Shown piece by piece: positions 2,279 through 58,120 of a stretch of 64,000 nucleotides of DNA; position 1 is the stretch's first letter, and each line of letters opens with the position of its first letter. Location of the stretch: positions 32,001 to 96,000 of the IMG/VR virus record IMGVR_UViG_3300048850_000068; one strand, given 5' to 3'. A program made the translations under genes and the position numbers. The notes below the pieces were generated by a model, which did no database searches, was not told where the DNA came from, and saw only the letters and a list, made by a program, of their open reading frames with translations. Source of the DNA: a virus.

Positions 2279-2548
2279 TTAGGTGGCATCGATTCCGGAG
2301 GGCCGGTGAGCGAATTCCTCAAGATGCTTTCCAATAACGTCGTGGATCTTCTCCTCGGCGATGGCCGCGGCGAGCTCCTCGATCTTGGTGATCAGGTGCT
2401 CCCGCCAGTCCCGGCGCCCGTAGGTGCCGGGCTTGGAGCCCTCGTAAAGCTCCATCGCCTTGCGCAGGTGGTCGCGCTGACGCTGAACGGGCGTTCGCGT
2501 GCCATGCTTGGCGAGGGTCTCGATGTCCTTTTGGAGCTTGTCACTCAT
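2279..2548 (-). CDS. hypothetical protein
   Basis: 89-aa ORF overlapping the ligase stop by 4 nt. Confidence 0.65.
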   Translation of the reverse strand: MSDKLQKDIETLAKHGTRTPVQRQRDHLRKAMELYEGSKPGTYGRRDWREHLITKIEELAAAIAEEKIHDVIGKHLEEFAHRPSGIDAT

Positions 2549-31522: not shown

Positions 31523-32056
31523 TTACGGGGTCGCGTCAGCCGCCTCGTGGCCGACGTAGAACAGACGCTCGTTCGTCGGGTCCGGATAGCCGGAGAAGGT
31601 GCAGTTGAACACGCGCTCGTCTTCGAGCTTGTAGGCGAACTGCATCGCGCCCGGGGTCATGGCGCGGGGCACCACGAAGTCCTCGGACTCGTCGCTGTCG
31701 GGCAGGCTCTTCGGGTGAAGGCGCAGCTCCTTGGCGTAGTCGAGCAGCGACAGGCCGATACCCGTCTTCACATCGACGCGGCGCACATCGACATCGCCGG
31801 AATCCGTGACGAGCGAGGCGCCCGGCATGATCAGCACGAGGTTGTCGAGGGTGGTCTCGGCCAGCGGAACCTTCACGGTCACGTTACGCGACATGATGAT
31901 CTCGTTGATGACGGTCTTACCGAACTGATCCACTTCGACCTTCTTCGTTTCGGTGGTCACTTCCACCTCAACACCGCCCTTGGTGTAACCCAGGTCCTTG
32001 GTGTCGAAAAAGATCTTGCAGACGCCCAGCTTGACGTTCTTGGTATCAGAAGCCAT
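31523..32056 (-). CDS. major tail (tube) protein
   Basis: DLGYTKGGVEV motif; position in operon. Confidence 0.8.
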   Translation of the reverse strand: MASDTKNVKLGVCKIFFDTKDLGYTKGGVEVEVTTETKKVEVDQFGKTVINEIIMSRNVTVKVPLAETTLDNLVLIMPGASLVTDSGDVDVRRVDVKTGIGLSLLDYAKELRLHPKSLPDSDESEDFVVPRAMTPGAMQFAYKLEDERVFNCTFSGYPDPTNERLFYVGHEAADATP

Positions 32057-43071: not shown

Positions 43072-43335
43072 TCAGGACACGAAAACCTTAAAAGCTTCCA
43101 GGGTTGGCTTGATGTAGAGCTTGCGCTTGCGATGCTCCCGGGCAATCAATCCATGCTTCTCGAGGAACTTGAGCGAGCACAGAATAGCCTGCTTGGACAC
43201 ATCCGGGCCGTAGCTCAACTTCCCCTTTAGTTCGTGAAGCTCGATGAAGTCTCCGGTATCCCGGGCGGTGTCCATCACCAGCTTCATGATCTCCGTTTGC
43301 TTGTCGTTCTGGGCGAATTCACCTTGTCCGGGCAT
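43072..43335 (-). CDS. winged-helix DNA-binding protein
   Basis: SKQAILCSLKFLEKHGLIAR wHTH; start overlaps the upstream stop. Confidence 0.65.
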   Translation of the reverse strand: MPGQGEFAQNDKQTEIMKLVMDTARDTGDFIELHELKGKLSYGPDVSKQAILCSLKFLEKHGLIAREHRKRKLYIKPTLEAFKVFVS

Positions 43336-44303
43336 CAGCAGGCGCACCTCTGGAAAGAGGCCTCCTCCGCAAACGTCTTTGCCGTGCGCCAGGCATTCCA
43401 CGCCTCCCAGTTGAACGGATCGCGCGGGCCCTGCCAGTCGAACGCCTCGAGCGGCAGACGATCCGGGAAGATCTTCTTGGGCTCGGGGTTCTTCCAGACG
43501 CCATACATCGGCGAGGCCAGGATCACCTGCTGCAGGCTCTTGATCACCTTGCGGGCGTCCATGTCGTCGACCCGGCCCTGGCCGCGGTCGCGGTTGCCGC
43601 CGGTCTTCTCGAGCGCCGAGTGGCGATAATAGAAGTCCTTGCAGGCCTGGAGCAGCTTTTCACGGGACGCGGGGTCGTGCGCCTCGAGCTCACTGATGAT
43701 TGCCTCGTAATCCTGCGGGCTCGCCTCGAAGTGGCTGCGGAAGAACTTGAGGCCCTGGTCGAACTTGTTCGAGTTCATCGGCCGGACGAAGCGGAACCCG
43801 GCCTTCTGGCCGAAGATATTGAACTTCGACATGGAGCTCTGGATCTCCATGAAGGTGTTGCCCTCCATGCGCGAGACCAGGTTCATGGTGCGGTAGCCGG
43901 CGCCGATGCCGCGATACATGGTGTCCACGACGAAGCGCGAGATCACCCGGATATTCTGGTTGATCCAGACGTAGCGCTGGGTGTTGATGTGCTTGTTGTC
44001 GGACCCGGGCTTGATGTTCGGGAACGCGAGATGGCGCTCCTTCAGGAGACCCTTGGGATTGGCCGTCACCAGCACGCCGATGGTCTCGCCGTCCAGCGTC
44101 AGCTTCCAGAAACGAGGCCCGATCGGCAGGTTTTCCGCCTTGTAGTGCAGATCGTGCAGCAGATTCCAGTCAGACGCATCACCCCGCTCGACGATCATGC
44201 GCTCAAGCAGCGAGAAACGTGCTGCCGGGGCGTTTTCGCGCTCGACGTGCGTGATGATCGCTGGGAAAGAGAAATCGCGCTCAGTGAGCGTCCCTGTGCT
44301 CAT
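43335..44303 (-). CDS. GNAT-fold acyltransferase, candidate DNA-modifying
   Basis: ISRFVVDTMYRGIGAG acyl-CoA motif A; F.QKAGF. Confidence 0.7.
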   Translation of the reverse strand: MSTGTLTERDFSFPAIITHVERENAPAARFSLLERMIVERGDASDWNLLHDLHYKAENLPIGPRFWKLTLDGETIGVLVTANPKGLLKERHLAFPNIKPGSDNKHINTQRYVWINQNIRVISRFVVDTMYRGIGAGYRTMNLVSRMEGNTFMEIQSSMSKFNIFGQKAGFRFVRPMNSNKFDQGLKFFRSHFEASPQDYEAIISELEAHDPASREKLLQACKDFYYRHSALEKTGGNRDRGQGRVDDMDARKVIKSLQQVILASPMYGVWKNPEPKKIFPDRLPLEAFDWQGPRDPFNWEAWNAWRTAKTFAEEASFQRCAC

Positions 44304-44755
44304 AGCTGCGATGCCCTTCCCATCTTCACCTTACCCTTGAGACCGCGCTCCATGATCGCGTGAAACCCGTAGTCGTGGCAGACCACGCGGCCCTTGTAGG
44401 TGCCCCAGTTGTCGATATGCGTGTCGGCGAAGATCTCCGGCAGCTCCGCCGGCATCTTCTTGAGCGGCCGTGTGCGCTTCATGATCAGCACGGACCCGGA
44501 ATGTGAGATCGACACGCAGGGCGCAAACCAGGGCTCCCAGGCGGTGCCCTTGACCTCATTCCAGATATGCCACTCGGCGACGTTGCAGAATTCCTTGGTG
44601 TCGGAGTGCTCGATCTTCACGACCAGACCGGACTGCGGGCTCATGACCTCGTAGACCTCGCGATACACCCCGCCCCCTAAGCGCTTGCCCATGAGGGTCG
44701 TATTAAGCTCGTGCTGGACCGTGCGGCCCAGGCCGGTCAGCAGATCAAGCCCCAT
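44300..44755 (-). CDS. protein-kinase-fold protein
   Basis: LGGGVYREVY, VVKIE, DTHIDNWG, CHDYG. Confidence 0.6.
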   Translation of the reverse strand: MGLDLLTGLGRTVQHELNTTLMGKRLGGGVYREVYEVMSPQSGLVVKIEHSDTKEFCNVAEWHIWNEVKGTAWEPWFAPCVSISHSGSVLIMKRTRPLKKMPAELPEIFADTHIDNWGTYKGRVVCHDYGFHAIMERGLKGKVKMGRASQL

Positions 44756-45104
44756 CGGACGTCTCCTCGAGGCTTTCGATATGCTCCTTGACGTCCGGCA
44801 CCTCGAGCGCGGCGATTTCCTCGTCGGTCAGATCGCGCACCTGCAGCGGCGGCACCAGCTCACCCGGGATGAGAAGGCCGATCGCCTCGAGCAGAATGGG
44901 CTTGGGCTGCGAGCGGCCGATGTATTGCTGCGACCAGGCCCACTCGTATTGCCACAGGTCGACCAGGTGCCCGATCGCCGTCTCGGCGTCCTCGCCCGAC
45001 GGGAAGATGGCAGCCTGACCGAACTCGCCCTCCGTGAGCGGATCCTTGGTCATGAAGTTGCCCGAGAGGGTGTTGCGCAGGACGAACACGGCGAGATCGG
45101 ACAT
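44745..45104 (-). CDS. hypothetical protein
   Basis: MSDLAVF start overlaps the upstream stop. Confidence 0.55.
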   Translation of the reverse strand: MSDLAVFVLRNTLSGNFMTKDPLTEGEFGQAAIFPSGEDAETAIGHLVDLWQYEWAWSQQYIGRSQPKPILLEAIGLLIPGELVPPLQVRDLTDEEIAALEVPDVKEHIESLEETSDGA

Positions 45105-45589
45105 CAGTAGTTTCCTTCGCAGACCTGCAGGCAGCGAATTCCTTCCTCGCGCCACATCTTCGTCACGCCGGCCCGATCCTCGACGGCGAAGAGAGGCTCG
45201 TAGCCGCCGGCGCGGAGCGCAGCGAGCATGTCCTTCTTCACCTCGGTATCCGGACGATAATCGTCTTCCGGGCGCATCATCAGCGCGGTCCAGACGATCT
45301 GATGCCGCACGAGCCACTCGATCGTGACCGCTTCGGCCGAACGGCGCCGGCCCGTGAGAACCCAGACGTGATAGCCGGCCGCGGCCATGGCATTGTTCAG
45401 GGCCCGGATCTCCGGATAGACCTTGTCGCCGTCACAGGCGTCAAAGAAGGCCTGCCACGCCTCGTCCACGGGCTTGCCCGTCTCGTGCGAGGAGTTCTTC
45501 GGCAGCAGATGCAGACGGTGATCGGCATTCGCGAGCGTGCCGTCGATGTCCATGATGATGCAGGGCGTTGGGGTCACAGAATGCTCCAA
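45104..45589 (-). CDS. HAD phosphatase (PNKP 3'-phosphatase-like)
   Basis: DIDGTLA, LTGR, MRP.DD.RPD..VK, EDR. Confidence 0.85.
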   Translation of the reverse strand: MEHSVTPTPCIIMDIDGTLANADHRLHLLPKNSSHETGKPVDEAWQAFFDACDGDKVYPEIRALNNAMAAAGYHVWVLTGRRRSAEAVTIEWLVRHQIVWTALMMRPEDDYRPDTEVKKDMLAALRAGGYEPLFAVEDRAGVTKMWREEGIRCLQVCEGNY

Positions 45590-46140
45590 ATCCAGGCCCG
45601 CGGATTGCCCGGGCTCTGGTGCTTGACGAAAAAGTGGCGGGTTTCACGCGGAGCGAGCAGGCGCCCGTCCTGGTTGTCGAGGATGAGGGTGCCGCGGCTG
45701 GTGCGGACGGCGAGGACCGCATGGCCCTCCCCGTTCGGGTCCAAAACGACTGTGATCAACAGGACACTCGAGGGCCAACCCAGCTCCCGAAGCTGGTGCC
45801 GCTTGAGGATGACATAGTCTTCACAGTCGCCCATGCCGTCGCGCGGGAAGTCCCACACGTCGACCTGGTTAAAGCGGTCGAGATCGCGCACGCCGAGAAC
45901 GGCCTTGTTGACGCTCCGGTTGACCTGGATCAGCTCGCGCAGGCGCTTGCCGGTGAGCTCGATGGTCTCGACCGCGGGGCCGGAGACCTGGCACTCGGTC
46001 GGATTGCGGTCACAGAACGGCGCAAAGGCATACGGAGCTAAGTCAGTTCTGACTGATGCTTGCCCACGCGCGTGAGGCGTGAAGAAGCCCAGGAGAACGA
46101 GCCCGACGACAAAGCCGATCGAGATCCGCAGCCAGCTCAC
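45574..46140 (-). CDS. transglutaminase-like cysteine protease (BTLCP/C93)
   Basis: Signal/TM N-terminus; GDCEDY, HAVL, ILDN. Confidence 0.85.
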   Translation of the reverse strand: MSWLRISIGFVVGLVLLGFFTPHARGQASVRTDLAPYAFAPFCDRNPTECQVSGPAVETIELTGKRLRELIQVNRSVNKAVLGVRDLDRFNQVDVWDFPRDGMGDCEDYVILKRHQLRELGWPSSVLLITVVLDPNGEGHAVLAVRTSRGTLILDNQDGRLLAPRETRHFFVKHQSPGNPRAWIWSIL

Positions 46141-46403
46141 AGAACGCCACCCACGCGGGACGGCGAGCGCACCACGACGGCGCCGGCCGAGGTCGGCACG
46201 ATGGCGCTGAGGAGGTGATAGGTCTCGCCGTGAATGTCGGCCCAGGAGCAGCCGTCGAAGATCACGACGCCGAAGCTCTCGCCGCGCAGGGTCGAGGCCA
46301 CGAAATCGTCCTTCAGGCTGTCGAGCGAGGTCTCGACGACGCGGCCGGTTCGCAGGTGCACGATGTTATGATCGCCGGTGCGGCGGATGAGAAGGATGTT
46401 CAC
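46137..46403 (-). CDS. hypothetical protein
   Basis: Coupled ORF with 4-nt overlaps. Confidence 0.55.
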   Translation of the reverse strand: MNILLIRRTGDHNIVHLRTGRVVETSLDSLKDDFVASTLRGESFGVVIFDGCSWADIHGETYHLLSAIVPTSAGAVVVRSPSRVGGVL

Positions 46404-47038
46404 TGGGCTTGCTCCACTTCGACGCGCTCACGGAAGCGCTTGGTGATGGTGAGGGACGGTGCAAGGTCGGCCTTCAGGTCGGTGTGGGTGGTTGCCACCA
46501 TGAGCGTCTTGCCTTGGTTGCGGGCAACCTTCTGAAGATTGAAGGCGATGACCTTCGCGGTGGTGCGATCAAGCACCGCCCCAAACTCGTCGGCGATCCA
46601 GACGTCGGCGCCGCTCTCGAGCACCTTCGCCAGCTTCAGCCGGTAACGTTGGCCGTCGGAGAGCTCCGAGGGCTTGCGAATGTAGATCCAGGCATCCGAG
46701 ATGCCGGCGAGAGCAAGCAGGTGCATGCCCTCGGTGATGGTCTTGCCCACGAGCTCGATCACGGGCCGGTCCTCGAGGGTGATCTCGTTTAGATCCGCAA
46801 CCGACAGACCCTCGGCCCGCATCTGCGCGTGCAGATCCTTGAGCAGCAGAGACTTGCCGGAGCCGGACTGACCGGTGATGTAGACCACGTCGCCGGCATT
46901 CACCTCGAGGGCGAGGTTGTCGTAGATGACGAATTCCTTCTGGGACAGACCCAGCCCGAAGCCCTCGGCGACCTCGAGCACCCGCGGCGTGCGCTCGACG
47001 CTCGACGTAAACTTGCGGGTGATGGTGTAGGTGGTCAT
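46400..47038 (-). CDS. stand-alone ABC-type ATPase
   Basis: GQSGSGKS, LSDGQ, IADEF, TTH; no permease nearby. Confidence 0.88.
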   Translation of the reverse strand: MTTYTITRKFTSSVERTPRVLEVAEGFGLGLSQKEFVIYDNLALEVNAGDVVYITGQSGSGKSLLLKDLHAQMRAEGLSVADLNEITLEDRPVIELVGKTITEGMHLLALAGISDAWIYIRKPSELSDGQRYRLKLAKVLESGADVWIADEFGAVLDRTTAKVIAFNLQKVARNQGKTLMVATTHTDLKADLAPSLTITKRFRERVEVEQAQ

Positions 47039-47418
47039 GCGGGCTGTCCGTCGTCGTCAATCTCGTCGTCGTATTGAAGCGGATCCCCGTCGCACTCGGC
47101 CATCATCAGGAGCTCGTCGCGCAGCGTGCAGGAGGAGCCAGCCATACGGTAATAGCCGGCTCGGTTCTGCTCGCCCGGGGCGGGCGTGTGATACATGACC
47201 GGAACCCAGTTCTCCGGATCGAAGGCCATCGCCACGAGCCCGACGAGCTCGCCCTTGCGGAGCTTCTCGAGCAGGTTTTCGACCGCCCCGATGGCGACGA
47301 CGTCGATATCGCCGGCCTTGAGCGGTTCGCTTTCCTTGAGCTCCACCGGTGACGGCGCCTGGTAGGGGCGCCGGTCGAGGCGGATGACCTTGGTCTCTGG
47401 TGTATCCTGGTCCGACAT
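47035..47418 (-). CDS. hypothetical protein
   Basis: Coupled ORF. Confidence 0.6.
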   Translation of the reverse strand: MSDQDTPETKVIRLDRRPYQAPSPVELKESEPLKAGDIDVVAIGAVENLLEKLRKGELVGLVAMAFDPENWVPVMYHTPAPGEQNRAGYYRMAGSSCTLRDELLMMAECDGDPLQYDDEIDDDGQPA

Positions 47419-47438
47419 GTTCAGTCAATCCTGACTTA

Positions 47439-48131
47439 TTAATCGAGGCGATCAGCAACTTCGGAAAGCGCGGCGATGAGAGCTTCCGGGCCCTGCAGCC
47501 CGCCCTTGGTCTCGATGCGGCTCATGAAGTTTCGAATTTCACGGGACTGGGCGACCGTCACGCGCTTGAAGCCGAGGGCGTCCCCGACCGGGGCCAGAGA
47601 GCCGTCGACGTCCTTGGCCTTCTGGGTGTTCTCGGTCTTCTGCTCCTCGACAGCCTCGCCGATATCGTCCACGAACACGTCGTCCTCGACGTTGAACTCG
47701 CCGAGGTCTGCTGCCATGAAATCGAGCGTCTTGGCGTCAAAGCCCAGACTGTCCATGTCGAAGCCGGTCTCGTAGAGCGCGGCGAGCTCGGCCTGCAGCA
47801 CTTCCGTATCGTATTCCTTGCCGGCGACCTCGTTATCGGACAGGCGCAGGGCGTTGGCTTCGGCTTCGGTCAGATCCGAACGGACGATGACCGGCACCTT
47901 CTTGAAGCGCTCGTCGCCATTGTCGCGCAGCAGGATCGAGGCCAGGCGCCGGCCGTGGCCGGCGATGATCACGCCGTCGGTCCAGACCTGGATCGGGTTC
48001 GAGATCCGGAACTTGGCAAGGCTCTTCGAGAGCTTCTCGACCTCGGCCGGCGGGTGCTTCTTGGGGTTGTTCGGATAGGGAACCAGGCGGTCGAGATCCC
48101 AGAACTCGATTACGGGCTTGTGCTCACTCAT
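47439..48131 (-). CDS. ParB/Srx N-terminal domain protein
   Basis: LVPYPNNPKKH, IIAGHGRR, LSDN. Confidence 0.85.
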   Translation of the reverse strand: MSEHKPVIEFWDLDRLVPYPNNPKKHPPAEVEKLSKSLAKFRISNPIQVWTDGVIIAGHGRRLASILLRDNGDERFKKVPVIVRSDLTEAEANALRLSDNEVAGKEYDTEVLQAELAALYETGFDMDSLGFDAKTLDFMAADLGEFNVEDDVFVDDIGEAVEEQKTENTQKAKDVDGSLAPVGDALGFKRVTVAQSREIRNFMSRIETKGGLQGPEALIAALSEVADRLD

Positions 48132-48306
48132 CGTCGGTCATTCCTGCAACAATTTCCTGGAGCTCGTCGGCGTCCGGGAGGGCCTTTTCTTCCACCTTCT
48201 CCTCGAAGAACTCGCCGGCGCCGCAGCGCAGGCAGTTCACATTGAGACGGCGGGCATTCCAGAAGACGCAGCGCCGGCAATCGTCATGGCGGGGCTCATG
48301 CGGCAT
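48124..48306 (-). CDS. small Cys-rich protein
   Basis: CRRC...CLRC. Confidence 0.55.
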   Translation of the reverse strand: MPHEPRHDDCRRCVFWNARRLNVNCLRCGAGEFFEEKVEEKALPDADELQEIVAGMTDDE

Positions 48307-48544
48307 AGGAAGCTCCCGGGAAGGGGTCTTCGTTCAGCGCGGGAGCCGGGCGAATCTCGCCGACATAGAGGGCGTTGCGCAGGTATCCCCGCTGCGAGGC
48401 GCCCTTCTTGTAGAATTCGTAGGCCTGGCCGTCGGACCGGACCCAGTAGAAGTGAACCCGGCCGCGGCGGTTGCGCATCAGGCGCACATTCGACCCGCCG
48501 CAGAGCAGAGCCACGAGAAAGCAATTGCCCGGAAACCGCATCAC
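48296..48544 (-). CDS. hypothetical protein
   Basis: Coupled ORF. Confidence 0.5.
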   Translation of the reverse strand: MMRFPGNCFLVALLCGGSNVRLMRNRRGRVHFYWVRSDGQAYEFYKKGASQRGYLRNALYVGEIRPAPALNEDPFPGASYAA

Positions 48545-49215
48545 TCGGTCTCCTCGTCCTCGGTCTTGCCGCCCAGCAGCAGGAAGACCAGGGCATCGCC
48601 GGCATTGGTGAGCTCGTCGCCAGAGGTGAAGCCGTGCTTCTTCTGGGTCTTGGCGATCAGAGCGGTGATGCTCTCGGCATCGGTGAGACCGACCTTATAG
48701 CGCTGGATCGTATGCGTCTTCGGCGCTGTTGCCTGGGGTGGCTCAGGCTTTTCGTCGGTCTTCGTATAGTTTTCGTCAATATCCAAGTCATCAAGTGCTA
48801 TATCTACACTTGAGAAGATCGAACGAATATCAGCATCAGAATAAGGAAGGATCGCTTGAACTTCATCCCCGCCCAGTTCTTCGAGGAGCTTTGCCAATTC
48901 GATCGTGTCATCGGCGCCGTAACGGGCATTGTCGGCGAGCATGATCTTCTTGGCGATGTCATCGGACACGGTGCCGATGTTCCAGACGTCGATCTTAGTC
49001 CAGCCCTTGTTCTTGGCCTGGTCCCAGCGGTGCTCGCCGCCGAGGATCTCGTAGGGCGTATCGGTCTCCCCGGTCTCCCGAACCACGATCGGCTTGAAGA
49101 AGGGCAGCTCGTCGAGCGAGTTGGCGATCTTGTCCTCGTTCTCCGGGGTCACGATGTTCGTGTTCCACGGATTCGGGCGCAGCAGATCGATATCGACAGA
49201 AAGGTGTTGGGGCAC
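48541..49215 (-). CDS. ParB/Srx N-terminal domain protein
   Basis: LRPNPWN, YEILGGEHRW, ADN. Confidence 0.85.
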   Translation of the reverse strand: MPQHLSVDIDLLRPNPWNTNIVTPENEDKIANSLDELPFFKPIVVRETGETDTPYEILGGEHRWDQAKNKGWTKIDVWNIGTVSDDIAKKIMLADNARYGADDTIELAKLLEELGGDEVQAILPYSDADIRSIFSSVDIALDDLDIDENYTKTDEKPEPPQATAPKTHTIQRYKVGLTDAESITALIAKTQKKHGFTSGDELTNAGDALVFLLLGGKTEDEETE

Positions 49216-52213: not shown

Positions 52214-52933
52214 GTGATCGACCAGAAGCACTCCCTGCGCGTCTACTACCACAACAAGTTCGTGGGCTGGCTGCGCAACACCGACGGGCGCCAGGTTCGC
52301 AGCGCCCGTCTGTATCTCACCGCCGAGAGCCTCGAGGGCGACGACGCCGGCAACGTGCTGGAATTCGAGGTCACTCTGCGCCACAGCAACTATGACGCCT
52401 GGGACGCCTCTAATAAGAACATCGTCATTCCGGACTACGCGACCAAAGATCCGGTCACCCGGGCCTATTCCTGGTTCGACGCCCTGATCCGCGATCACGA
52501 CGACTACGAGCTCCTGTTCGACCAGCCGTATTTCGAACCCCATGACGACGGCCCGGACGACGAGAGCGCAGCCTCGACCATCAAGTTCGCTGCCGGCACC
52601 ACGGTTCTGAGCCCGAAGAGCACGGTCAATGTCGTGGTCAACGTCCCGGGCGACGAGGAACAGCAGTCGGTTAACGCGAGCAAGATCGCCAAGATGATCG
52701 ACGACATGCTTCAAAAGGCACCCAAGCGCCCGAACCCGCTGCAGCTCCACAAGGGCAAGTATGGCTATACCAGCCAGCAGAAGATCCCGATGAGCGAGGA
52801 CGACAAGTCCAAGGTAAAGGGCTACGAGGTTCCGGAGCCCAAGGAGGACCGCTATGAGATCTTCCGTCGCTACCACACCGGCGGGATCGTGGGTCATACC
52901 TCCCCGTTGGTAAAGCTGAAGGGCGGGGTCTGA
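52214..52933 (+). CDS. hypothetical protein
   Basis: 239-aa ORF; C-terminal YHTGGIVG. Confidence 0.65.
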   Translation: MIDQKHSLRVYYHNKFVGWLRNTDGRQVRSARLYLTAESLEGDDAGNVLEFEVTLRHSNYDAWDASNKNIVIPDYATKDPVTRAYSWFDALIRDHDDYELLFDQPYFEPHDDGPDDESAASTIKFAAGTTVLSPKSTVNVVVNVPGDEEQQSVNASKIAKMIDDMLQKAPKRPNPLQLHKGKYGYTSQQKIPMSEDDKSKVKGYEVPEPKEDRYEIFRRYHTGGIVGHTSPLVKLKGGV

Positions 52934-53030
52934 ATCTTCCGGCTATCGCGGATCCCGGGTTGCGGCTTAACCTTTTCTTCACTACTCGTGGCGAAAAGAT
53001 TTAGCGAAACAGCGAACTAGGGATTTCGCG

Positions 53031-53678
53031 ATGCCCTTCTCCATAGCCTGCACCAGTCAGAAAGGCGGCGCCGGTAAGAGCACCCTCGCTCGACTACTAG
53101 CCCGGACCTACGCGGAAGCCGGATGGCGCGTTCTCATCGCCGACTTCAACACCAAGCAGAAAACGAGCGTGGACTGGGTCGCACAGCGCATGTCGCACAA
53201 GATCGAGCCCACAGTCCACGCGGCGCCCTACCAGACCATGAAAAGCTGCCTCAAGGACATGCCGAGCTATCACATGATCCTGTTCGACGGCCGGCCGGAT
53301 TCCGATACCACCACCAAAGATATCGCCAAGGAGGCCAACTTAGTTCTGATCCCCACCGGGACCAATCGCGACGACCTTCTTCCACAGATCACTTTTGCCC
53401 TGGAACTAGACCGTGGAACGGTTTCCAAGCAGAAAATGATCTTCGTCCTGAACAAGACGAATAATAGTGATTTGGCAGTTGAGGACGCCCGTCAGACAAT
53501 CGAGCGGGCAGGCTTCAAGGTAGCGAAGACGGACATCCGATGGCAGCAAGCCTATCAGAACGCGCAGGATCAGGGACGGGCCATCTCGGAGACCTCTTTT
53601 CCTACACTGAACGAGCGGGCGGAGATCTTAGCCGCGGAGCTCGTCGAGCACCTCAACCAGATCACAGGGAGAGCCTAA
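53031..53678 (+). CDS. parA: ParA-family partition ATPase (short, type Ib-like)
   Basis: QKGGAGKST, VLIAD, ILFDGRP, VLNK. Confidence 0.9.
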   Translation: MPFSIACTSQKGGAGKSTLARLLARTYAEAGWRVLIADFNTKQKTSVDWVAQRMSHKIEPTVHAAPYQTMKSCLKDMPSYHMILFDGRPDSDTTTKDIAKEANLVLIPTGTNRDDLLPQITFALELDRGTVSKQKMIFVLNKTNNSDLAVEDARQTIERAGFKVAKTDIRWQQAYQNAQDQGRAISETSFPTLNERAEILAAELVEHLNQITGRA

Positions 53679-53977
53679 TGGCTAACAAACCACGCCCCGG
53701 CCCACCGCCGGGTGATCCAAAGCCGAAACGTCAGAAGCCGATGCGCGAGCGGCTACAGATCAATATCCCAGACGCCAAGTCGATCGGTGACAACCTGACC
53801 AAACCCACCGACGACATAGTGGACCTCAACTTCAAGATCCCAGAGAGCTTCCACCGTCGGTTCAAAGCAGAGGCGACCCTGCGCGGCATCTCCATGCGCG
53901 AGCTCCTCGAGAGTTCGTTCAAATGCTTCACGGAGGTTCATGGGTCGACCGTCGATAAGAGCCTGTTCGAGAAGTAG
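53678..53977 (+). CDS. ribbon-helix-helix partition partner (ParG-like)
   Basis: LNFKIPESFHRRFKAEATLRGISMRELL; coupled to parA. Confidence 0.75.
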   Translation: MANKPRPGPPPGDPKPKRQKPMRERLQINIPDAKSIGDNLTKPTDDIVDLNFKIPESFHRRFKAEATLRGISMRELLESSFKCFTEVHGSTVDKSLFEK

Positions 53978-53984
53978 GAGAGCC

Positions 53985-54227
53985 ATGACCAAGCCGTATC
54001 ACGAGGAGCTCGAGGAGCGCCTGGATGAGATCATGGAGAAAGCCAGCCCCGAGGAGCGTCCCAAGCTCATGCTGCACTTCATGGAGCACATGACCCCGCT
54101 CCTCGAGCAGGCCTTCATGGGCAGTCCTCTCATGTCAGGCGCCGAGAAGGAAAAGCTCGCGATGGCGCTGCGGGAGATGGAAGAGCGCATGATCATGCTC
54201 AGGCGGATGATCGCCGAAGCTCGCTAG
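53985..54227 (+). CDS. hypothetical protein
   Basis: AGGAG RBS; 80-aa helical ORF. Confidence 0.6.
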   Translation: MTKPYHEELEERLDEIMEKASPEERPKLMLHFMEHMTPLLEQAFMGSPLMSGAEKEKLAMALREMEERMIMLRRMIAEAR

Positions 54228-54737
54228 ACAACTTCACCAAGGATAGGGCGCCTGGGAGTGGTTCTCCTGGGCGTCTCTCATACGGGGCGCCGTATAACCG
54301 CAGACTATCCGCCGGAGCGTATGGGTGTCCGAAGACCGCAGCATGGTTCGGACGATCCGGAGAACGCTGAGCCTGACTAATCATTTCCGGGCAATTTCAA
54401 ACCGTTCGCCAAGGATACGCCCGGAAGAGCTCGGAACACCCGAGGCAATGTATAGGCGCCCGGGCTGTCTATCTAAGACTTCGATATTTCACAGAAAATC
54501 GACTCGCTCGAAGCGCAAGCTAAGCGCTGCTAGAGACGCGCACGCGTGCACAGATGCGCAATCACTCACGACGATCATTCAATCGCGCTCACGCACGCTT
54601 AGAACGCATTTAATCGCACATCGCGAATGTATAGCGCTCATACGTATGCAAGCGCGCATGACGCACGCACACTAGCGCTACACAGTAACTCATACTAACG
54701 ATCTAGTCTGACAACGATCTAAATCGCTTTAAGAGCG

Positions 54738-54766
54738 TTGACAGTAAGTCAGCACTGACTTAGTTT
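54738..54766 (+). promoter_or_regulatory. sigma70-type promoter with 18-bp operator in the spacer
   Basis: TTGACA-17 nt-TAGTTT; TAAGTCAGCACTGACTTA at 54745-54762. Confidence 0.75.
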
Positions 54767-54930
54767 AATACTCACAAGAGAGCAACGCGACGCAGCAAGC
54801 GACACGCAAAGCGCTCTTGAGAGAACAAGTTCTCGCTGCTCTTTGACACTGTGAATAAGCAAAAGACTACAAACGCAAAGACTAGCGCGTTTCAAAACAA
54901 AGCTAGTTGCTATCAATGAAAGCGAACACA

Positions 54931-55581
54931 ATGTTCAACACTGCTACTGAGTTCAAGTCTGCTATGCTCTCTGCTATCTCTTCGCGCTTCATGTATGAAG
55001 CAAAGAAAGCAAGCGCTGAGCATAACGTCGAAGTCACTGAAGAGAACTTCAGAGACGTTCTCAAGACGAATAACTCTTCAATGTTCGACACGCTTAAAGC
55101 TATCGAAGACAGCGCTAAGCATGACGTTATTAGCAACATCATGTTTCTTGCTAACTGCGATGCTGAACGCATCAATCGCAGCGAACGCTCTAACGCACGT
55201 TACAACGTCTATGCGTATGAGAAAGATATCAACATCGCTCGCTGTGCTGCTTCAGTCGAGAGACTCAATCACTACACGAAAGCAATTCTTCAGACTGCGA
55301 AGAAATTCGCTGAGCAAGAGACTGAATTGCTACTCACTCACGACGATGCACAAAGCGCTTGTTCGCTGAGTGTGAAGACTAGCGATAGCAAGCGCGAACG
55401 TCTCATCGTCAAGTATCAGAAGCATGTGAGCGCGAAGACTGCTAGCACACAGTCTAGCTCTTCGATCAACGCTCTTCAAAGCTTCAATGTCTTGATTGAG
55501 ACGCGCGACGCAAGCAACAAAGTCGCTTATAAACTCAACATGAACAACGATCTAACGCAGCGCTTGCTTGAGCGCTGCTAA
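54931..55581 (+). CDS. Gly/Pro/Trp-free protein, paralog of 56417-57346
   Basis: INRSERSNARYNVYAYEK and VSAKTASTQSSSSINALQ match the paralog; alternative start 54916. Confidence 0.85.
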   Translation: MFNTATEFKSAMLSAISSRFMYEAKKASAEHNVEVTEENFRDVLKTNNSSMFDTLKAIEDSAKHDVISNIMFLANCDAERINRSERSNARYNVYAYEKDINIARCAASVERLNHYTKAILQTAKKFAEQETELLLTHDDAQSACSLSVKTSDSKRERLIVKYQKHVSAKTASTQSSSSINALQSFNVLIETRDASNKVAYKLNMNNDLTQRLLERC

Positions 55582-55593
55582 GCAACACTAACG

Positions 55594-55617
55594 AGAGACG
55601 CGAGCAATCGCGTCTCT
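55594..55617 (+). terminator. hairpin with GCAA tetraloop
   Basis: AGAGACGCGA-GCAA-TCGCGTCTCT. Confidence 0.6.
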
Positions 55618-55656
55618 TTACTCAAAACAACAAAGCGAACACAAGAAAGCTTAACA

Positions 55657-55848
55657 ATGTCAAAGACATTCAAAGATATGCGCGAGCTGAGCGCAGCGAA
55701 AGCGAAGAAGTTAGCGAAGACGCGCAAAGCAAAGCGCGATGTGCTCAACATGCTCTCGAAAGCATACGACACTAGCTCGCAAGTCTTCGAGTTCTTCGAA
55801 GAGAACGAATACTCACTCACGCGTGACGATGTGAAGGCGCTAGTCTAA
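55657..55848 (+). CDS. small Gly/Pro/Trp-free protein
   Basis: 63 aa, basic N-half and acidic C-half; shares leader motif with the upstream gene. Confidence 0.65.
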   Translation: MSKTFKDMRELSAAKAKKLAKTRKAKRDVLNMLSKAYDTSSQVFEFFEENEYSLTRDDVKALV

Positions 55849-56015
55849 TGATCTACGATGCAATCGACTTCACTCGCACGAACTTCGCAGCGCTGCTTGT
55901 CATCTTCGCAATGATATGCGCGCTATGTCTCACAGCAGTTACAATGTTGCGAGACTATCTCGACGCGACGCGCTACAGAGTGCGCGCACGACGCATGCGA
56001 CGCTATCGCTACTGA
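55848..56015 (+). CDS. 55-aa membrane protein, Gly/Pro/Trp-free (not in ORF track)
   Basis: TAATG overlap; MIYDAIDFTRTNFAALLVIFAMICALCLTAVTMLRDYLDATRYRVRARRMRRYRY. Confidence 0.55.
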   Translation: MIYDAIDFTRTNFAALLVIFAMICALCLTAVTMLRDYLDATRYRVRARRMRRYRY

Positions 56016-56020
56016 GTTAC

Positions 56021-56056
56021 AAAGCGCGACGCTATACAGTGTCGCGCTTTTTTATT
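56021..56056 (+). terminator. intrinsic terminator closing the island
   Basis: AAAGCGCGAC...GTCGCGCTTT followed by TTT. Confidence 0.75.
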
Positions 56057-56080
56057 GCGTTACGTTTGCAACGTTATATT

Positions 56081-56232
56081 GCCTGTGGCAGGAATGCCAT
56101 GTGGCAGCGGAGCCATGTGGCTTTGGGACCATGTGGCCCGGAAGTGACGTGGCATTCCTACCATGTGGCTTTTCCGCCATGTGGCGGGCCGACCACGTGG
56201 CTGGAATACCATATGGCGGAAATACCACGCAA
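56081..56232. repeat. CCAYRTGG array with exact 16-bp period
   Basis: Cores start at 56081, 56097, 56113, 56129, 56145, 56161, 56177, 56193, 56209, 56225. Confidence 0.88.
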
Positions 56233-56375
56233 CGATATCACACCACGCGCCATGGAGCGCCCGAACTATAGGTGTAGGAGCAGTGCTCCTACACCGGGTC
56301 CCACGGACAATGCCGTTCCTACTACCGGTGCAGCCCAGCCGTTCCTCGGAAATCCATGGTATTGCAACGGGCACG

Positions 56376-56405
56376 AAAAAGGAGGGGCGCCGCTCCCCTC
56401 CTCTC
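56376..56405 (-). terminator. intrinsic terminator for 56417-57346
   Basis: AGGAGGGG/CCCCTCCT stem with T-run on the minus strand. Confidence 0.7.
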
Positions 56406-56416
56406 TCGTCCGTGCC

Positions 56417-57346
56417 TTACGCCGCGAGCAGCTTATCCTCCAAGAAGCGTGCGATAGGGGCGTCGGTGACGTGGAACACTGGGTTCTTCTTCGAGCCCGT
56501 CGCGAAGACGACCCCGAGGGTTTCGAGCGCCTGCATGGTGGAGCTCGCTTGTGTGGGCGCAGTCGAGGCGCTGACCGTGTGCGAGACCAGGTGCTTCCGG
56601 AGAGCAGGCTCGATGCGGACCTTGTCGCTTGCTGCTGCCTTCGCGACTTCCATCGAGAAGTCGAGGCCCGCGTTCTTGAAGCGGAAGAGGGAGCGCATGC
56701 ACGCCTGGTTGATGGCGTTCGAGATCGTGCCGTCCGTCACCCCGTAGATCACGTCGGCGAGCTTGCCCAGCGCGTAGACGTTGTAGCGGCTACCGGTGTT
56801 CTCCTCGCGATTGATGAAGTCCGGAGAGACGTTGGTCACGAGGAACACACGGGCGGCGCGTTTGGTGACGAGCTGCGAGCGGACCTTCTTCAAGGTGCGC
56901 TGGATGTTCTCGTTGTCGGGGTTCTTCTGGGCCTCGAAGCCGGCGCGCTGGTCGACCGCGGCAGCGATGGTGCACACCATGTTGTCGGCGTCTTCGTCGC
57001 TCACCGCAGCGCACAGCTCTTGGAAGGTGAGTTCGGCGGGGCTCTCTTCGATGAGCTCCTCGGATGCACCCTCGGTGGCCTCGAGGATGTGGACCGCGGC
57101 CTCGAGCTCCTGGACCGTCGCCTGGCCGGCATCGACCGGGGTCTCGGTCTCGAGGGCTTCGAGCAGCTCCGCGACAGTGCCCTCGGTCACGGTGATGTTG
57201 GCGAGTTGCACGTCGATGGGCGGCAGTTCCACGGCCGGCGTCTCGACTTTCTTGGAAGAGCGAGCGCGGCGGGCAGTCTTGGAAGCGTTCTGAGCAGTCA
57301 TCGTATCGTCTCCGTGTAGTGAAGCGTTGTGCTTCGTTGCTGACAA
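56417..57346 (-). CDS. hypothetical protein, possible C-terminal winged helix; paralog of the island gene
   Basis: FINREENTGSRYNVYALGK, VSASTAPTQASSTMQALETLGVV; start may be 57301. Confidence 0.8.
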   Translation of the reverse strand: MSATKHNASLHGDDTMTAQNASKTARRARSSKKVETPAVELPPIDVQLANITVTEGTVAELLEALETETPVDAGQATVQELEAAVHILEATEGASEELIEESPAELTFQELCAAVSDEDADNMVCTIAAAVDQRAGFEAQKNPDNENIQRTLKKVRSQLVTKRAARVFLVTNVSPDFINREENTGSRYNVYALGKLADVIYGVTDGTISNAINQACMRSLFRFKNAGLDFSMEVAKAAASDKVRIEPALRKHLVSHTVSASTAPTQASSTMQALETLGVVFATGSKKNPVFHVTDAPIARFLEDKLLAA

Positions 57347-57492
57347 CTAAGACAATACTGATATCGGTGAGGGATAAAACTGCTAATTACTTAGGCCAGT
57401 AGGCAAGTTAAACGGCTGTAGGCCCGCGCTATACACCGCTCCATGGCCATATACGCGTGCGCGTTCTTCTATACTACATGAAACCTCTTGCG

Positions 57493-57599
57493 CCATGGCA
57501 CCCCATGGTCTCCCAAGGGCCCGGTTTACCCCTTGGTCTGCCGTGGTGTGCCGCGGTCTTCCATGGCCCGGAGGATTTCAGCCATGGTCTGTGCCATGG
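57493..57599. repeat. CCNNGG repeats phased at ~10 bp
   Basis: 57493, 57503, 57513, 57531, 57541, 57551, 57561, 57582, 57594. Confidence 0.7.
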
Positions 57600-57679
57600 A
57601 AATTCCCAACGCCTCTCCCTTACTCTTCTATAGGTCAGTAGGTGTAATAGGTAGTAAGGCGATGGCGTTGGGAATTTCC
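57598..57679 (+). repeat. ~80-bp inverted-repeat element, copy 3
   Basis: GGAAATTCCCAACGCC...GGCGTTGGGAATTTCC. Confidence 0.75.
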
Positions 57680-58120
57680 ACGGACGTCTCATGGAATGCC
57701 ACCCGGGACGCGGCTGATCCCTAGTCGGCTCCTGCGGCCTTACCTAATTTCCGGGAAGACGCCATGGCGTAGCACGCGGGCAAAAAGAGAGCCGAGCTCC
57801 ACGTGGGAACCCGGCTCTAAGGTCAGACGGACGAATCGCAGTAGCGCCACCTCAGCGGCAACCGGGGACCTGCGGACGTGCCGCCCTGTCAGCGAACACA
57901 GAGAGAAGCGCGCCCCTCGCTCGCGCATCGCTCAACATGTGTCTTGTGACTGAGATCGGGATGGAGTGCAACCGGACAGGTGAGGCCTTTGGGTGGTGTG
58001 AAGAGGCGGGGAGGCGCCGCGCCTCACACTGTTTCTACCCTCTCTTACGCACACCCCTCACATACGCTCTCTATAGACCACTCTCTAGGCTTACGTGTCT
58101 CTATAGCCCGGTGCCTTATG

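Follow-up and report, generated by a model that had tools for sequence, protein, structure and literature searches.

A phage-plasmid operon without GG and CC

The window analyzed here is a 64,000-nt stretch (positions 32,001 to 96,000 of IMG/VR virus record IMGVR_UViG_3300048850_000068) of a 117,557-bp replicon. It carries a small operon with three open reading frames, ORF1 to ORF3, in a 1617-bp island that is almost free of the dinucleotides GG and CC (Table 1). The replicon is a phage-plasmid, in agreement with the original prediction. Close relatives encode RepC and ParA together with terminase, capsid, tape measure and lysozyme. The island is flanked by a ParA operon and by a paralogue of ORF1 with normal composition.

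Table 1. Features of the island and its surroundings, in window coordinates
Position	Strand	Feature	Description
53031..53977	+	Conserved upstream neighbors	ParA (215 aa, CbiA/ParA family) and a small ribbon-helix-helix-like protein
54465..56081		GG/CC-free island	1617 bp, 0 CC, 1 GG; GC 47.6% against 61% for the replicon
54465..54737		Word-free non-coding DNA	Upstream of the promoter-like element; rich in GCGC/ACGC
54474..54482	-	Conserved edge motif GAAGTCTTA	At the ParA-proximal edge; in most relatives GGGGATGCC follows about 21 nt outside the island
54738..54762	+	Promoter-like element, probable operator-gated promoter	-35 TTGACA (54738-54743), followed directly by the 18-bp palindrome TAAGTCA-N4-TGACTTA (54745-54762), of which the replicon has 22 exact copies; no consensus -10 assigned
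54931..55581	+	ORF1	216 aa (221 aa if it starts at ATG 54916); no Gly, Pro or Trp; predicted N-terminal helical domain plus C-terminal winged helix; no Shine-Dalgarno sequence, which would need GG
55594..55617		GC-alternating hairpin	Between ORF1 and ORF2; a metatranscriptome piece runs across it
55657..55848	+	ORF2	63 aa, Lys-rich, no family match; carries the only GG of the island, at 55836
55848..56015	+	ORF3	55 aa, hydrophobic segment then Arg-rich tail; start overlaps the ORF2 stop; no family match
56021..56050	+	Intrinsic-terminator-like hairpin	13 pairs, built without GG/CC, followed by a T run; end of the operon
56082..56230		Array of CCAYRTGG-type iterons	Starts at the first CC after the island; relatives G002 and G003 have CCACAGTGG-type iterons at the same edge
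56417..57346	-	Normal-composition paralogue of ORF1	309 aa, 25% identical to ORF1 (E 9e-13); extra N-terminal extension of about 125 aa; shares the motif TQ.SS...AL; GG words at the expected rate

The observation that prompted this work, an island with no CC and one GG, is confirmed, and its predicted boundaries are exact. The island (A495 C415 G354 T353) holds 0 CC against 106.5 expected from base composition and 1 GG against 77.5 expected. The single GG lies in AAGGCG, at an AAG|GCG codon junction. The last GG before the island is at 54463. By contrast, GC (169 against 91 expected) and CG (148 against 91) are raised, and GCGC, CGCG, GATC and AAGCTT remain. All other 500-bp bins of the window hold 54-102 GG/CC, while the three island bins hold 0, 0 and 1. 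In the whole replicon, which has 18,092 GG/CC, the two longest gaps free of GG/CC are 1373 and 246 bp. They are adjacent and together form the island, and the next longest is 87 bp. An unbiased scan of every strand-symmetric 2- to 4-mer ranked CC/GG first (gap x frequency = 211), and the highest-scoring word that does not itself contain GG/CC scored far lower.

The ban acts on DNA. When synonymous codons were resampled with the replicon's own usage and the three protein sequences were kept, 62.0, 19.4 and 18.3 GG/CC were expected for ORF1-3. The observed values are 0, 1 and 0, and 0 of 5000 simulations per gene reached them. The codons GCC, ACC, TCC, CGG and AGG are all absent from the island, although GCC and ACC are the commonest Ala and Thr codons elsewhere. 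The 607 non-coding bases of the island hold 0 GG/CC, against about 77 expected from other intergenic DNA. The 334 island residues include no Gly, Pro or Trp, against 45.5 expected. One part of the original prediction needs correction, since the island does not coincide exactly with one transcription unit. It runs about 270 bp upstream of the only promoter-like element.

The island is not an artefact. A 41,989-nt soil-metagenome contig reproduces positions 52500-58000 with 0 differences, though it may be the source assembly. Two 151-nt pieces from a metatranscriptome of another study are identical over 55534-55808, though they carry no information on timing. Relatives only 29-60% identical in protein carry the same kind of island.

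The structural model of ORF1 has a pLDDT of 97.1. Its C-terminal half (residues about 112-216) superposes on MarR-family and other winged-helix domains, with best matches at Z 8.0-8.9 and rmsd 1.6-2.4 A over 71-76 residues, covering model residues 105-216. The best is 6pco_A (Z 8.9, rmsd 1.9 A, 72 residues aligned). These Z values lie in a range that is common for unrelated models, and the N-terminal helical half is unmatched. Foldseek found nothing at E <= 0.001. ORF1-3 match no family in Pfam, PHROGs or PADLOC, and no Pfam family, MarR included, reaches E <= 0.05 for ORF1 or the paralogue, apart from chance-level hits below the cut-off. A strict sigma-70 scan of 53900-57500 found no promoter.

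The avoided word in related phages

The trait is ancestral in a family of siphovirus phage-plasmids of roughly 105-120 kb. Of 64 ORF1 homologues, 46 have no Gly, Pro or Trp and all 64 have no Trp. The family has 10 invariant and 30 nearly invariant positions. Of 24 locus rows, 12 are strict, 2 are GGT-tolerant, 5 are leaky and 5 have no ban, and the strict state lies on both sides of the deepest split of the tree. In the same unbiased scan CC/GG is the top word in the present replicon, in the relatives AMS, G002, G003 and G004, and in the cultured phage nickie. The cassette keeps its place next to the helicase-ParA block in Methylobacterium-type, Faunimonas and metagenomic relatives, and it is inverted in some lineages without any effect on the ban. 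ORF1 and a normal-composition paralogue are found side by side in 12 of the 15 loci examined. The other three loci have one hit each. Two of these (L005 and L013) are contigs that end soon after the gene, and in G005 (L016) the ORF1-like gene is too divergent for tblastn, though both genes are present. The pair shares the helix motif TQ.SS...AL. The edge motif GAAGTCTTA is found at the island edge in the present replicon, G001, G004 and G005, and next to the ORF1 gene in loci L009/L062 and L013.

Word-free islands also occur in cultured phages of Pseudomonas, Rhizobium, Salmonella and E. coli, in 4 of 4 relatives (nickie, RHEph10, SSU5 and PhiR41_1), each with the word of its lineage. These belong to an SSU5-like superfamily. 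The ABC ATPase is 52-76% identical in 31 cultured phage records of 84-122 kb, SSU5 among them, the DnaG-like primase is found in all four cultured relatives, and 41 core proteins are shared by 8 genomes. The main gene of the island belongs to the ORF1 family in RHEph10 and G004 (hhalign 90% and 85.5%), but is not detectably so in nickie and SSU5.

The banned word varies by lineage. It is GG in any context (NGGN) in strict genomes. In G001, 21 of 24 GG are GGT, and GGC is 0 against 153 expected. In G005, 26 of 34 GG are GGT, and GGC is 0 against 39 expected. The exception is reverse-complement symmetric, since GGT and its complement ACC are both tolerated on the coding strand (15 and 11 in G005; 3 and 18 in G001), while GGV and BCC are both excluded. 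In Salmonella phage SSU5 and E. coli phage PhiR41_1 the word is [AC]GG[CGT], with 1302 bp free of it in SSU5 (next-longest gap 161 bp) and 1326 bp in PhiR41_1 (next-longest gap 288 bp).

The ban was lost at least twice. In locus L064, which is 68% identical to the strict locus L014, the DNA has 52 GG/CC but the protein has only 2 Gly. This lineage seems caught just after loss, with GG/CC regained at synonymous sites while the protein is still almost glycine-free. In G005 the orthologous protein has 8 Gly, all from codon-position-1 GG (GGT), and 3 Pro. These cases support the view that the missing Gly, Pro and Trp are a by-product.

What may read the word

The original interpretation is only partly supported. 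Selection on the DNA and not on the proteins, and the absence of general restriction-site avoidance, are upheld. Neither cause that it proposed, a GG/CC-directed modification of the phage's own DNA or invisibility to host systems that need GG/CC, has been demonstrated. Our analysis establishes that the ban is at DNA level, maintained by purifying selection, reverse-complement symmetric, ancestral, variable in its flanking rule and quick to decay at synonymous sites once lifted, and that a normal-composition paralogue accompanies the cassette as described above. By inference, the word is the recognition site of a factor that acts on duplex DNA or on both strands, not on RNA. We also infer that this factor is most probably encoded by the phage superfamily itself, because the GG core is kept across hosts from Alpha- and Gammaproteobacteria. 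The kept place of the cassette next to the helicase-ParA block and the word-free islands in phages of different hosts also speak for a phage-linked rather than a host-linked trait. DNA binding by ORF1, early expression of the cassette and the activity of the reader are likewise inferred. That the reader is phage-encoded and acts on DNA is somewhat more likely than not.

We tentatively favor a non-destructive mark, though this version remains less likely than not. In this view, the phage lays a mark on GG words of its genome, either a covalent modification or a tightly bound protein, which would protect the DNA but prevent normal reading. The word-free cassette would then be the only unit that the host machinery can express straight from incoming DNA. 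Its predicted winged-helix product would stand in for the paralogue, which would do the same job from unmarked plasmid or replicated DNA. This is the logic of T5 pre-early DNA, applied to a 2-4-bp word. A reader that does not cut is favored because dense words begin right at both island edges, and we infer that a cutter would leave a short linear fragment open to exonucleases.

Several results weigh against this model. No methyltransferase, transglycosylase or GNAT was recognized in the terminase-proximal module (two ParB-like proteins, two ABC ATPases, HAD-PNKP, BTLCP), in the other proteins scanned, which leave out most of the roughly 150 genes, or among the PGAP names of the relative pAMS5a. 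The "DNA methyltransferase" labels in relatives fall on ParB-like domains. The relative ORY, which has no ban, keeps all 41 core proteins and shows no excess of substitutions at otherwise invariant positions (24, against 57 in AMS and 25 in G001), and no gene is absent only from ORY. A core-encoded reader therefore needs a special explanation for the losses, such as a changed lifestyle. We know of no phage DNA modification that blocks host RNA polymerase, and the modified DNAs of T4 and Mu are transcribed. The ban upstream of the promoter-like element is not required by a pure block to transcription. First entry of the cassette is by analogy only, since the direct terminal repeats given in IMG/VR sit at unrelated distances from the island, contigs matching the window show no ends, and the termini in the Nickievirus paper were set arbitrarily. 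Examination of rIIA/B, CRISPR PAMs, DarT1 and gene presence or absence yielded no reader.

A bolder form of this reading is possible but doubtful. The SSU5-like superfamily could encode an undescribed activity that marks or binds duplex DNA at a GG-centered word of only 3-4 bp, that is every 6-10 bp along the genome, and could use it as a timing and self-recognition device. One immediate-early regulator operon would be recoded to be invisible to the mark, at the price of a 17-letter amino-acid alphabet, and the flanking rule would drift between lineages as a restriction-modification specificity does.

An absolute ban on a dinucleotide step, kept for as long as this phage family has existed, is a very strong selective signature. 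It points to a DNA-reading activity of unusually short specificity, for which our literature searches, in agreement with the original prediction, found no description. This could be a new DNA modification, a new nuclease or a new defense. The cassette is also a natural recoding experiment. It shows that functional, well-folded proteins (model pLDDT 97) can be built and maintained without Gly, Pro and Trp, and how quickly the alphabet and the synonymous sites recover once the constraint is lifted. The question is open to direct testing, since PhiR41_1 infects E. coli K-12, SSU5 Salmonella LT2, nickie P. syringae and RHEph10 R. etli. The banned-word scan needs no annotation and could serve as a general screen for hidden sequence-specific readers.

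Among the alternatives, a reader that cuts is unlikely but survives best. A nuclease, either phage-encoded for host-DNA destruction or competitor exclusion, or host-encoded for defense, could cut or nick at the GG word, and the cassette would be the part that must stay intact while the nuclease is active and before protection is in place. The same DNA-level, symmetric and lineage-variable ban supports this reading. The superfamily conserves nuclease-type parts, namely two ParB-like nuclease-domain proteins beside two ABC ATPases, and a gene that PGAP names a GIY-YIG nuclease in relatives. The word-free flank beyond the transcription unit could be a buffer against nearby cuts. T5 offers a parallel, since its pre-early DNA coexists with A1-driven DNA degradation, its evasion of A1 is unresolved (bioRxiv 10.64898/2026.04.02.716235), and T5-like phages resist restriction through pre-early functions (PMC10644984). 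However, cutting would free an exposed fragment of about 1.6 kb, the remaining roughly 18,000 words would need another protection that we could not find, and ORY keeps the ParB-like, ABC and GIY-YIG-type genes yet has no ban.

An external reader is somewhat less likely still. Here a host or co-resident-element defense with a short GG-centered recognition, PAM-like or of another kind, would act on incoming DNA, and the cassette would encode the counter-measure and have to be invisible to that defense. The word would change with the hosts' variants, and the ban would be lost where hosts lack the system. In support, the ban was lost at least twice and changed its flanking rule at least twice between sister phages without any change in core gene content, and the enterobacterial phages share one rule while the Pseudomonas and Rhizobiales phages share another. 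First-step-transfer DNA of T5 and restriction provide a classical precedent (references in PMC10644984). The T5 region is not known to carry EcoRI sites. However, a GG core kept across hosts of two classes is easier to explain by vertical inheritance in the phage, palindromic 4-mers are not avoided, and protecting 1-2 kb does not save a genome that carries thousands of sites. PAM-type explanations fit poorly, since the CC (type I-F) and NGG (Cas9) PAMs are not known to carry a flanking rule of the kind seen here. The one host genome searched, Faunimonas (G008), of unstated completeness, has no Cas1 match, while 7 of 14 control genomes matched. DarT1 has no GG consensus (PMC11543638).

A zone free of primase sites is very unlikely and rests on a weak lead. 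The word read on the complementary strand, 5'-NCC-3' or 5'-BCC-3', could be the template trinucleotide of the phage's own DnaG-type primase, and DnaG and T7-type primases read trinucleotides with a cryptic 3' base. In a blind test over 41 core proteins, we counted columns where the two GGT-tolerant genomes share a residue that differs from one invariant in the five strict genomes. The top protein had 4 such columns (control mean 0.7, control maximum 2) and proved to be the DnaG-like primase, with DNAG_N and Toprim domains. The result is not significant after 41 tests (totals 19 against 15.7). In addition, ORY has the primase but no ban, the SSU5-type word has four specified positions, and we can give no reason why an operon of 1-2 kb should avoid priming.

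A cause at the RNA or translation level (escape from an RNase or an RNA-binding repressor, or translation when tRNA-Gly, tRNA-Pro and tRNA-Trp are missing) is suggested by leaders that lack a Shine-Dalgarno sequence and by many other leaders in the replicon that are locally free of GG/CC, but it is disfavored because the ban covers DNA upstream of the promoter-like element and beyond the terminator, holds in all reading frames and at codon junctions, has a symmetric exception and is unaffected by inversion, and because short leader gaps are equally common in ORY (36 gaps of at least 45 bp, against 24-54 in the other genomes). A mutational footprint such as CC-directed deamination, or an assembly or synthetic artefact, is the least likely. 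In its favor, the GC content of the island (47.6%) is close to what the flanks would have if every GG/CC had lost a G or C, and CT, TC, AG and GA are mildly raised. Against it, the reading frames, hairpins and terminator are intact, the ORF1 model is confident, the family has conserved positions, an independent metatranscriptome piece is identical, and the same state holds in independent assemblies and cultured phages.

Comparison with known systems

The pre-early (first-step-transfer) DNA of T5 and relatives is a small block that has to work before, or while, the rest of the genome is exposed to DNA-directed activities, in large siphoviruses (about 105-122 kb), and we propose the same of this cassette. 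T5 pre-early DNA enters first and takes over the host (PMC10644984), and how T5 DNA escapes its own A1-dependent degradation is stated to be unknown (bioRxiv 10.64898/2026.04.02.716235), a question on which the present system may bear. The T5 block includes an essential predicted DNA-binding protein, A2. It is bordered by a repeat-rich non-coding stretch (PMC10644984). The island is free of its word while the rest of the replicon is not. The avoided word here has 2-4 bp and is not a 6-bp restriction site, the block is 1-2 kb rather than about 10 kb, and the element is also a plasmid prophage. The family searches of ORF1-3 revealed no homology, and two-step entry, terminal location and early timing would be shared by analogy only.

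Modified bases in T-even phages (hmC with Alc and cytosine-specific nucleases) and Mom modification of phage Mu also involve a phage-encoded activity that distinguishes DNA by a base-level feature and couples it to expression or protection, and Mom modifies only a short degenerate word. No homologue of these enzymes was found among the proteins scanned. Those phages mark all or part of their DNA, and none is known to keep a gene cassette free of the target word.

Restriction-site and CRISPR-PAM avoidance in phage and plasmid genomes likewise involve selective loss of a short word on both strands, because a DNA-reading factor would otherwise act there. Known avoidance is genome-wide and statistical, while here it is absolute but confined to one cassette, its flanking rule differs between sister phages, and the word is so short that three amino acids are lost from the proteins. 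Short palindromes are not generally under-represented. In 10,330 bp of pooled islands, CG is at 1.75x and GC at 1.84x expectation, and only GTAC (6 against 20) and AGCT (0.61x) are low.

Composition and anatomy of the island

There is a stretch at 54465-56081 (1617 bp, GC 47.6%) that contains no CC and one GG, the latter at 55836 in an AAG|GCG codon junction, whereas base composition predicts 106.5 CC and 77.5 GG. The original prediction of an island essentially free of these dinucleotides is confirmed, and its borders are exact, since the last GG is at 54463 and the next CC at 56082. Every other 500-bp bin of the window holds 54-102 GG/CC. The window lies in a single record of 117,557 bp with 18,092 GG/CC, in which the two longest GG/CC-free gaps (1373 and 246 bp) are adjacent and form the island, and the next longest is 87 bp. 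An unbiased scan of all strand-symmetric 2- to 4-mers, scoring the longest gap times the frequency of the word, puts CC/GG first with a score of 211.

The three ORFs of the island (216, 63 and 55 aa) contain no Gly, Pro or Trp, where 45.5 would be expected for 334 residues. We kept these protein sequences and redrew synonymous codons from the replicon's own usage, which predicts 62.0, 19.4 and 18.3 GG/CC for the three genes. The observed values are 0, 1 and 0, and none of 5000 draws per gene reached the observed value. The codons GCC, ACC, TCC, CGG and AGG are unused, and the 607 non-coding bases hold 0 GG/CC against about 77 expected. Thus, the constraint acts on DNA. Other short words are not banned. 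In the pooled islands of 10 loci (10,330 bp), CG and GC are over-represented and only GTAC and AGCT are low. GTAC, with 6 seen against 20 expected from a second-order model, is the only other clearly depleted word and may reflect a second, weaker avoidance.

The layout of the island and the other features discussed here are listed in the table. ORF1 is predicted to fold with a pLDDT of 97.1, and its C-terminal half is predicted to be a winged helix (Z 8.0-8.9 and rmsd about 2 A over about 72 residues), though a Foldseek search of the PDB gave no match at E <= 0.001. No Pfam, PHROG or PADLOC family matches ORF1-3, and the paralogue of ORF1 has only a weak CARF-type hit in PADLOC at 6e-4. A strict sigma-70 scan of 53900-57500 found no promoter. 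DNA-level searches with the island returned 1 short hit in plasmids and none in phages, and a search of phages with the ORF1 protein returned none.

A soil-metagenome contig of 41,989 nt covers 52500-58000 without a difference, but it may be the source of the record. Two 151-nt pieces from a metatranscriptome of another study match 55534-55808 exactly and run across the ORF1-ORF2 hairpin. This is weak independent support for the sequence and a hint of co-transcription, without evidence about timing. The same run covered nothing else of 52500-58000, but because it was found with this stretch, this says nothing about expression elsewhere.

Features of the island, the replicon and related genomes (window coordinates unless another genome is named)
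Position	Feature	Details
54465-56081	GG/CC-free island	1617 bp
from 54465	Word-free non-coding DNA	about 270 bp
54474-54482 and flank 54228-54464; G001 94943, G004 73615, G005 47300, L009 8132, L013 9650	Conserved DNA element at the ParA-proximal edge of the island	GAAGTCTTA, then about 21 nt, then GGGGATGCC
54738-54743	TTGACA	followed directly by the palindrome
54745-54762	18-bp palindrome TAAGTCA-N4-TGACTTA	one of 22 exact copies in the replicon
10, 293, 8227, 10139, 13035, 17627, 25718, 30702, 32123, 35713, 37315, 38295, 38362, 41016, 49231, 51131, 54745	Copies of the 18-bp palindrome	five more lie outside the window
before 54931	Leader of ORF1	no Shine-Dalgarno sequence
54919-54931 and 55632-55644	13-mer AAAGCGAACACAA	just before the ORF1 start (ATG at 54931) and 13 nt upstream of the ORF2 start
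54931-55581	ORF1	216 aa
55594-55617	Hairpin	between ORF1 and ORF2
55657-55848	ORF2	63 aa
55848-56015	ORF3	55 aa, hydrophobic segment and Arg-rich tail
56021-56050	Terminator-like hairpin	end of the operon
56082-56230	Array of CCAYRTGG iterons	about ten palindromic cores spaced roughly 16 bp apart, beginning with the first CC after the island, between the island terminator and the 3' end of the paralogue
56417-57346 (other strand)	Paralogue of ORF1	309 aa, ordinary composition, 25% identical to ORF1 with E 9e-13, GG words at the expected rate
upstream of the island	ParA and a small ribbon-helix-helix-like protein	
412-855	XRE-like regulator	candidate binder of the palindrome
5427-6599 and 2545-3972	DnaG-type primase and ATP-dependent DNA ligase	
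43335-49215	Terminase-proximal module	two ParB-like nuclease-domain proteins, two ABC-type ATPases (phrog_293 and phrog_886), a HAD-PNKP phosphatase and a BTLCP cysteine protease
whole replicon, e.g. window 872, 77915, 74305, 71478, 61011	Short GG/CC-free gaps	35 gaps of at least 45 bp
genome C1 114613-117515 and 108-1250 (outside the window)	rIIB-like gene and large neighbouring gene	rIIB-like gene phrog_2886, E 2.7e-76; the neighbour appears split across the ends of the record
L064 4001-4552 against L014 10001-10552	Pair of ORF1 orthologues	68% identical in protein
G004 72545-72640	(CATGTG)n / (CA)n microsatellite	about 90 bp, at the beginning of the G004 island

Conservation of the island and variation of the banned word

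Two Methylobacterium plasmids of 117-118 kb carry homologues of ORF1. Their annotation shows RepC and ParA together with terminase, major capsid, tape measure, tail and lysozyme genes, as well as DnaE, a DnaB-like helicase, ThyX and a sigma-like factor, and these are siphovirus-type phage-plasmids. In the window we confirmed the primase, the ligase, PhoH and an SF2 helicase, together with the terminase-proximal module. The 212-aa ABC ATPase of this module is the best-conserved protein, at 67-83% identity among eight genomes, and it is 52-76% identical in 31 cultured phage records of 84-122 kb that include Salmonella phage SSU5, E. coli phages, Pseudomonas syringae phages and Rhizobium phages.

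Of 64 ORF1 homologues (39-100% identity), 46 have no Gly, Pro or Trp, none has Trp, and the other 18 have 1-7 Gly+Pro. In related loci the gene lies in a GG/CC-free stretch of about 600-1700 bp. The gene order helicase, dNMP-kinase-like, ParA, RHH, island, paralogue is conserved, though the cassette is inverted in some lineages, which has no effect on a strand-symmetric ban. Over 24 locus rows, 12 are strict, 2 tolerate GGT, 5 are leaky and 5 are without a ban. Two pairs of these rows are the same contig or the same sequence, and two rows are short fragments. On a tree of 21 orthologues the strict state lies on both sides of the deepest split. Complete loss needs at least 2 events, one in the clade of the ban-less relative ORY with loci L015 and L064, and one in locus L059 next to the strict genome G002. 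GGT tolerance also needs 2 events.

The banned word itself varies. In a blind scan of eight complete genomes, five give CC/GG as the extreme outlier. Two others, G001 with a 2.1-kb island and G005 with a 1.0-kb island, lack GGC, GGA and GGG but tolerate GGT, which accounts for 21 of 24 GG in G001 and 26 of 34 in G005. The eighth genome, ORY, has nothing. We then analyzed four cultured phages whole. Nickie, a phage of P. syringae, has a strict 1137-bp island with a score of 149, and RHEph10 has a near-strict 1.25-kb island with 11 GG against about 171 expected. SSU5 has a 1302-bp stretch and E. coli phage PhiR41_1 a 1326-bp stretch free of [AC]GG[CGT], where the next-longest gaps are 161 and 288 bp. 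Because the word for these last two phages was derived from the data, its score is inflated. However, the same rule in two phages and the gap ratios still make it convincing, and the ORY control shows nothing. The main gene of the island belongs to the ORF1 family in RHEph10 (hhalign probability 90%) and in G004 (85.5%), but it is not detectably in that family in nickie or SSU5.

This variation is informative in several respects. The tolerated exception is symmetric under reverse complement, since GGT and ACC both occur on the coding strand while GGV and BCC are both excluded. The reader therefore sees duplex DNA or both strands, not the mRNA. The excess of ACC in G001 (18 against 3 GGT on the coding strand) is explained by synonymous ACC codons, and G005 has 15 GGT and 11 ACC. 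The missing amino acids are a by-product, since the G005 protein has 8 Gly encoded by GGT, and 3 Pro. The constraint also has to be maintained. The orthologue in L064, 68% identical to that of the strict locus L014, has 52 GG/CC in 552 bp but still only 2 Gly and no Pro or Trp, and this pair is a natural snapshot of recovery after the ban was lifted. A GG core with drifting flanks looks like the evolving specificity of a single sequence-reading protein.

Search for the reader and possible mechanisms

The search for the factor that reads the word gave negative or weak results. No gene of the replicon studied here, of the relative AMS or of G001 is present in all ban-bearing genomes and absent only from ORY. 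The rIIA/rIIB-like genes came closest, being absent from ORY and present in 6 of 7 ban-bearing genomes. We take the large neighbour of the rIIB-like gene to be rIIA-like, as it matches the 763-aa 'ATP-binding protein' of plasmid pAMS5a. However, G004 has a strict island and no rIIB even by profile search, so this pair is rejected. Genes specific to ORY include two methyltransferase-domain proteins, TcmP and Gp37/Gp68, and one ORY methyltransferase query matched 0 of the 3 records searched. ORY shows no excess of substitutions at otherwise invariant positions of 41 core proteins. A blind count of columns shared by the two GGT-tolerant genomes against the five strict ones put the DnaG-like primase first, with 4 against a control mean of 0.7, but this weak signal does not survive correction for 41 tests.

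Other candidates fared no better. The one host genome examined shows no Cas1, and DarT1 has no GG consensus. No methyltransferase, GNAT or transglycosylase was seen among the proteins scanned, and the 'DNA methyltransferase' labels in relatives sit on ParB-like domains, with no methyltransferase domain in the copy of this replicon. We also considered whether the short GG/CC-free gaps of the replicon belong to the same phenomenon. Many of these gaps of 45-87 bp lie at promoter/leader regions, many carry a TATAGC box, and their GCGC/ACGC-rich style resembles the island. This reading is rejected because they are equally common in ban-less ORY, and they are probably a feature of leader and promoter design.

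We regard as shown that the constraint acts at the level of DNA, that it is symmetric between strands, that its flanking rule differs between lineages, and that it decays at synonymous sites once lifted. What reads the word, where the reader comes from, what it does to DNA and when the cassette is expressed are inferred. In our view, the facts require a factor that reads a GG-centred word of 2-4 bp on DNA, and they require that the cassette must not be read by it. Since the GG core persists in phages of Methylobacterium, Rhizobium, Pseudomonas, Salmonella and E. coli, we think it somewhat more likely than not that the factor is inherited with the phage. Words are dense right up to the edges of the island, so cutting would leave a short linear fragment. 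We therefore tentatively favor a non-destructive mark or coat that hinders expression, though at less than even confidence. In this view, the cassette would be the unit that host machinery can read from incoming DNA, and its winged-helix protein would stand in for the ordinary paralogue, which would be used once the DNA is unmarked. Against this preference, no writer was found, ORY keeps all core genes, the ban reaches beyond the transcription unit, and early timing and a terminal position are supposed only by analogy. The interpretation in the original prediction is partly supported, in that selection acts on the DNA, while neither of its proposed causes, escape from a modification of the phage's own DNA or invisibility to host systems such as CRISPR, is shown.

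Among the alternatives, a nuclease that cuts at the word is possible but unlikely on the argument from the island edges. An external reader, from a host or a competitor, is somewhat less likely still, and a zone free of primase sites is very doubtful. RNA-level readings and mutational or artefact readings are disfavored.

The closest analogue is the pre-early DNA of phage T5, where the escape of T5 DNA from its own A1-dependent degradation is explicitly unresolved. The T5 literature consulted did not give a nick motif. Motif avoidance by an early-acting phage DNA segment is known from T5, whereas the word length, the absoluteness, the loss of three amino acids, the superfamily-wide conservation and the drifting rule are new. 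Full-text literature searches on GG and CC dinucleotides in phages, on phage proteins lacking glycine, proline and tryptophan, on DNA modification in SSU5-like phage-plasmids, on COG2401 and acetyltransferases in phages, and on phage-plasmids of Methylobacterium found no description of the phenomenon, the papers returned being judged unrelated by their titles and abstract starts. The reader may prove to be something entirely new.

Sequence elements around the island

The copies of the 18-bp palindrome lie mostly in short intergenic gaps, one of them inside the promoter region of the island, and together they look like a genome-wide operator ('stoperator') network. Candidates for the binding protein are the XRE-like regulator, ORF1 or its paralogue. 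The iteron array at the other edge may be a centromere or an origin, and genomes G002 and G003 have CCACAGTGG-type repeats at the same place.

The element at the ParA-proximal edge is deeply conserved, since it marks this edge even in genomes whose proteins are only 30-50% identical, and it looks like a promoter that fires away from the island. We asked whether the flanking GC-rich non-coding DNA could be a structured RNA. Rfam gave only two matches below the gathering score, both outside that stretch, and RNAalifold on 6 relatives gave 0 pairs, so this reading is rejected.

The 13-mer that precedes ORF1 and ORF2 may be a translation signal that replaces a Shine-Dalgarno sequence. In G004, the microsatellite with which the island begins is an alternating purine-pyrimidine tract inside the word-free zone.
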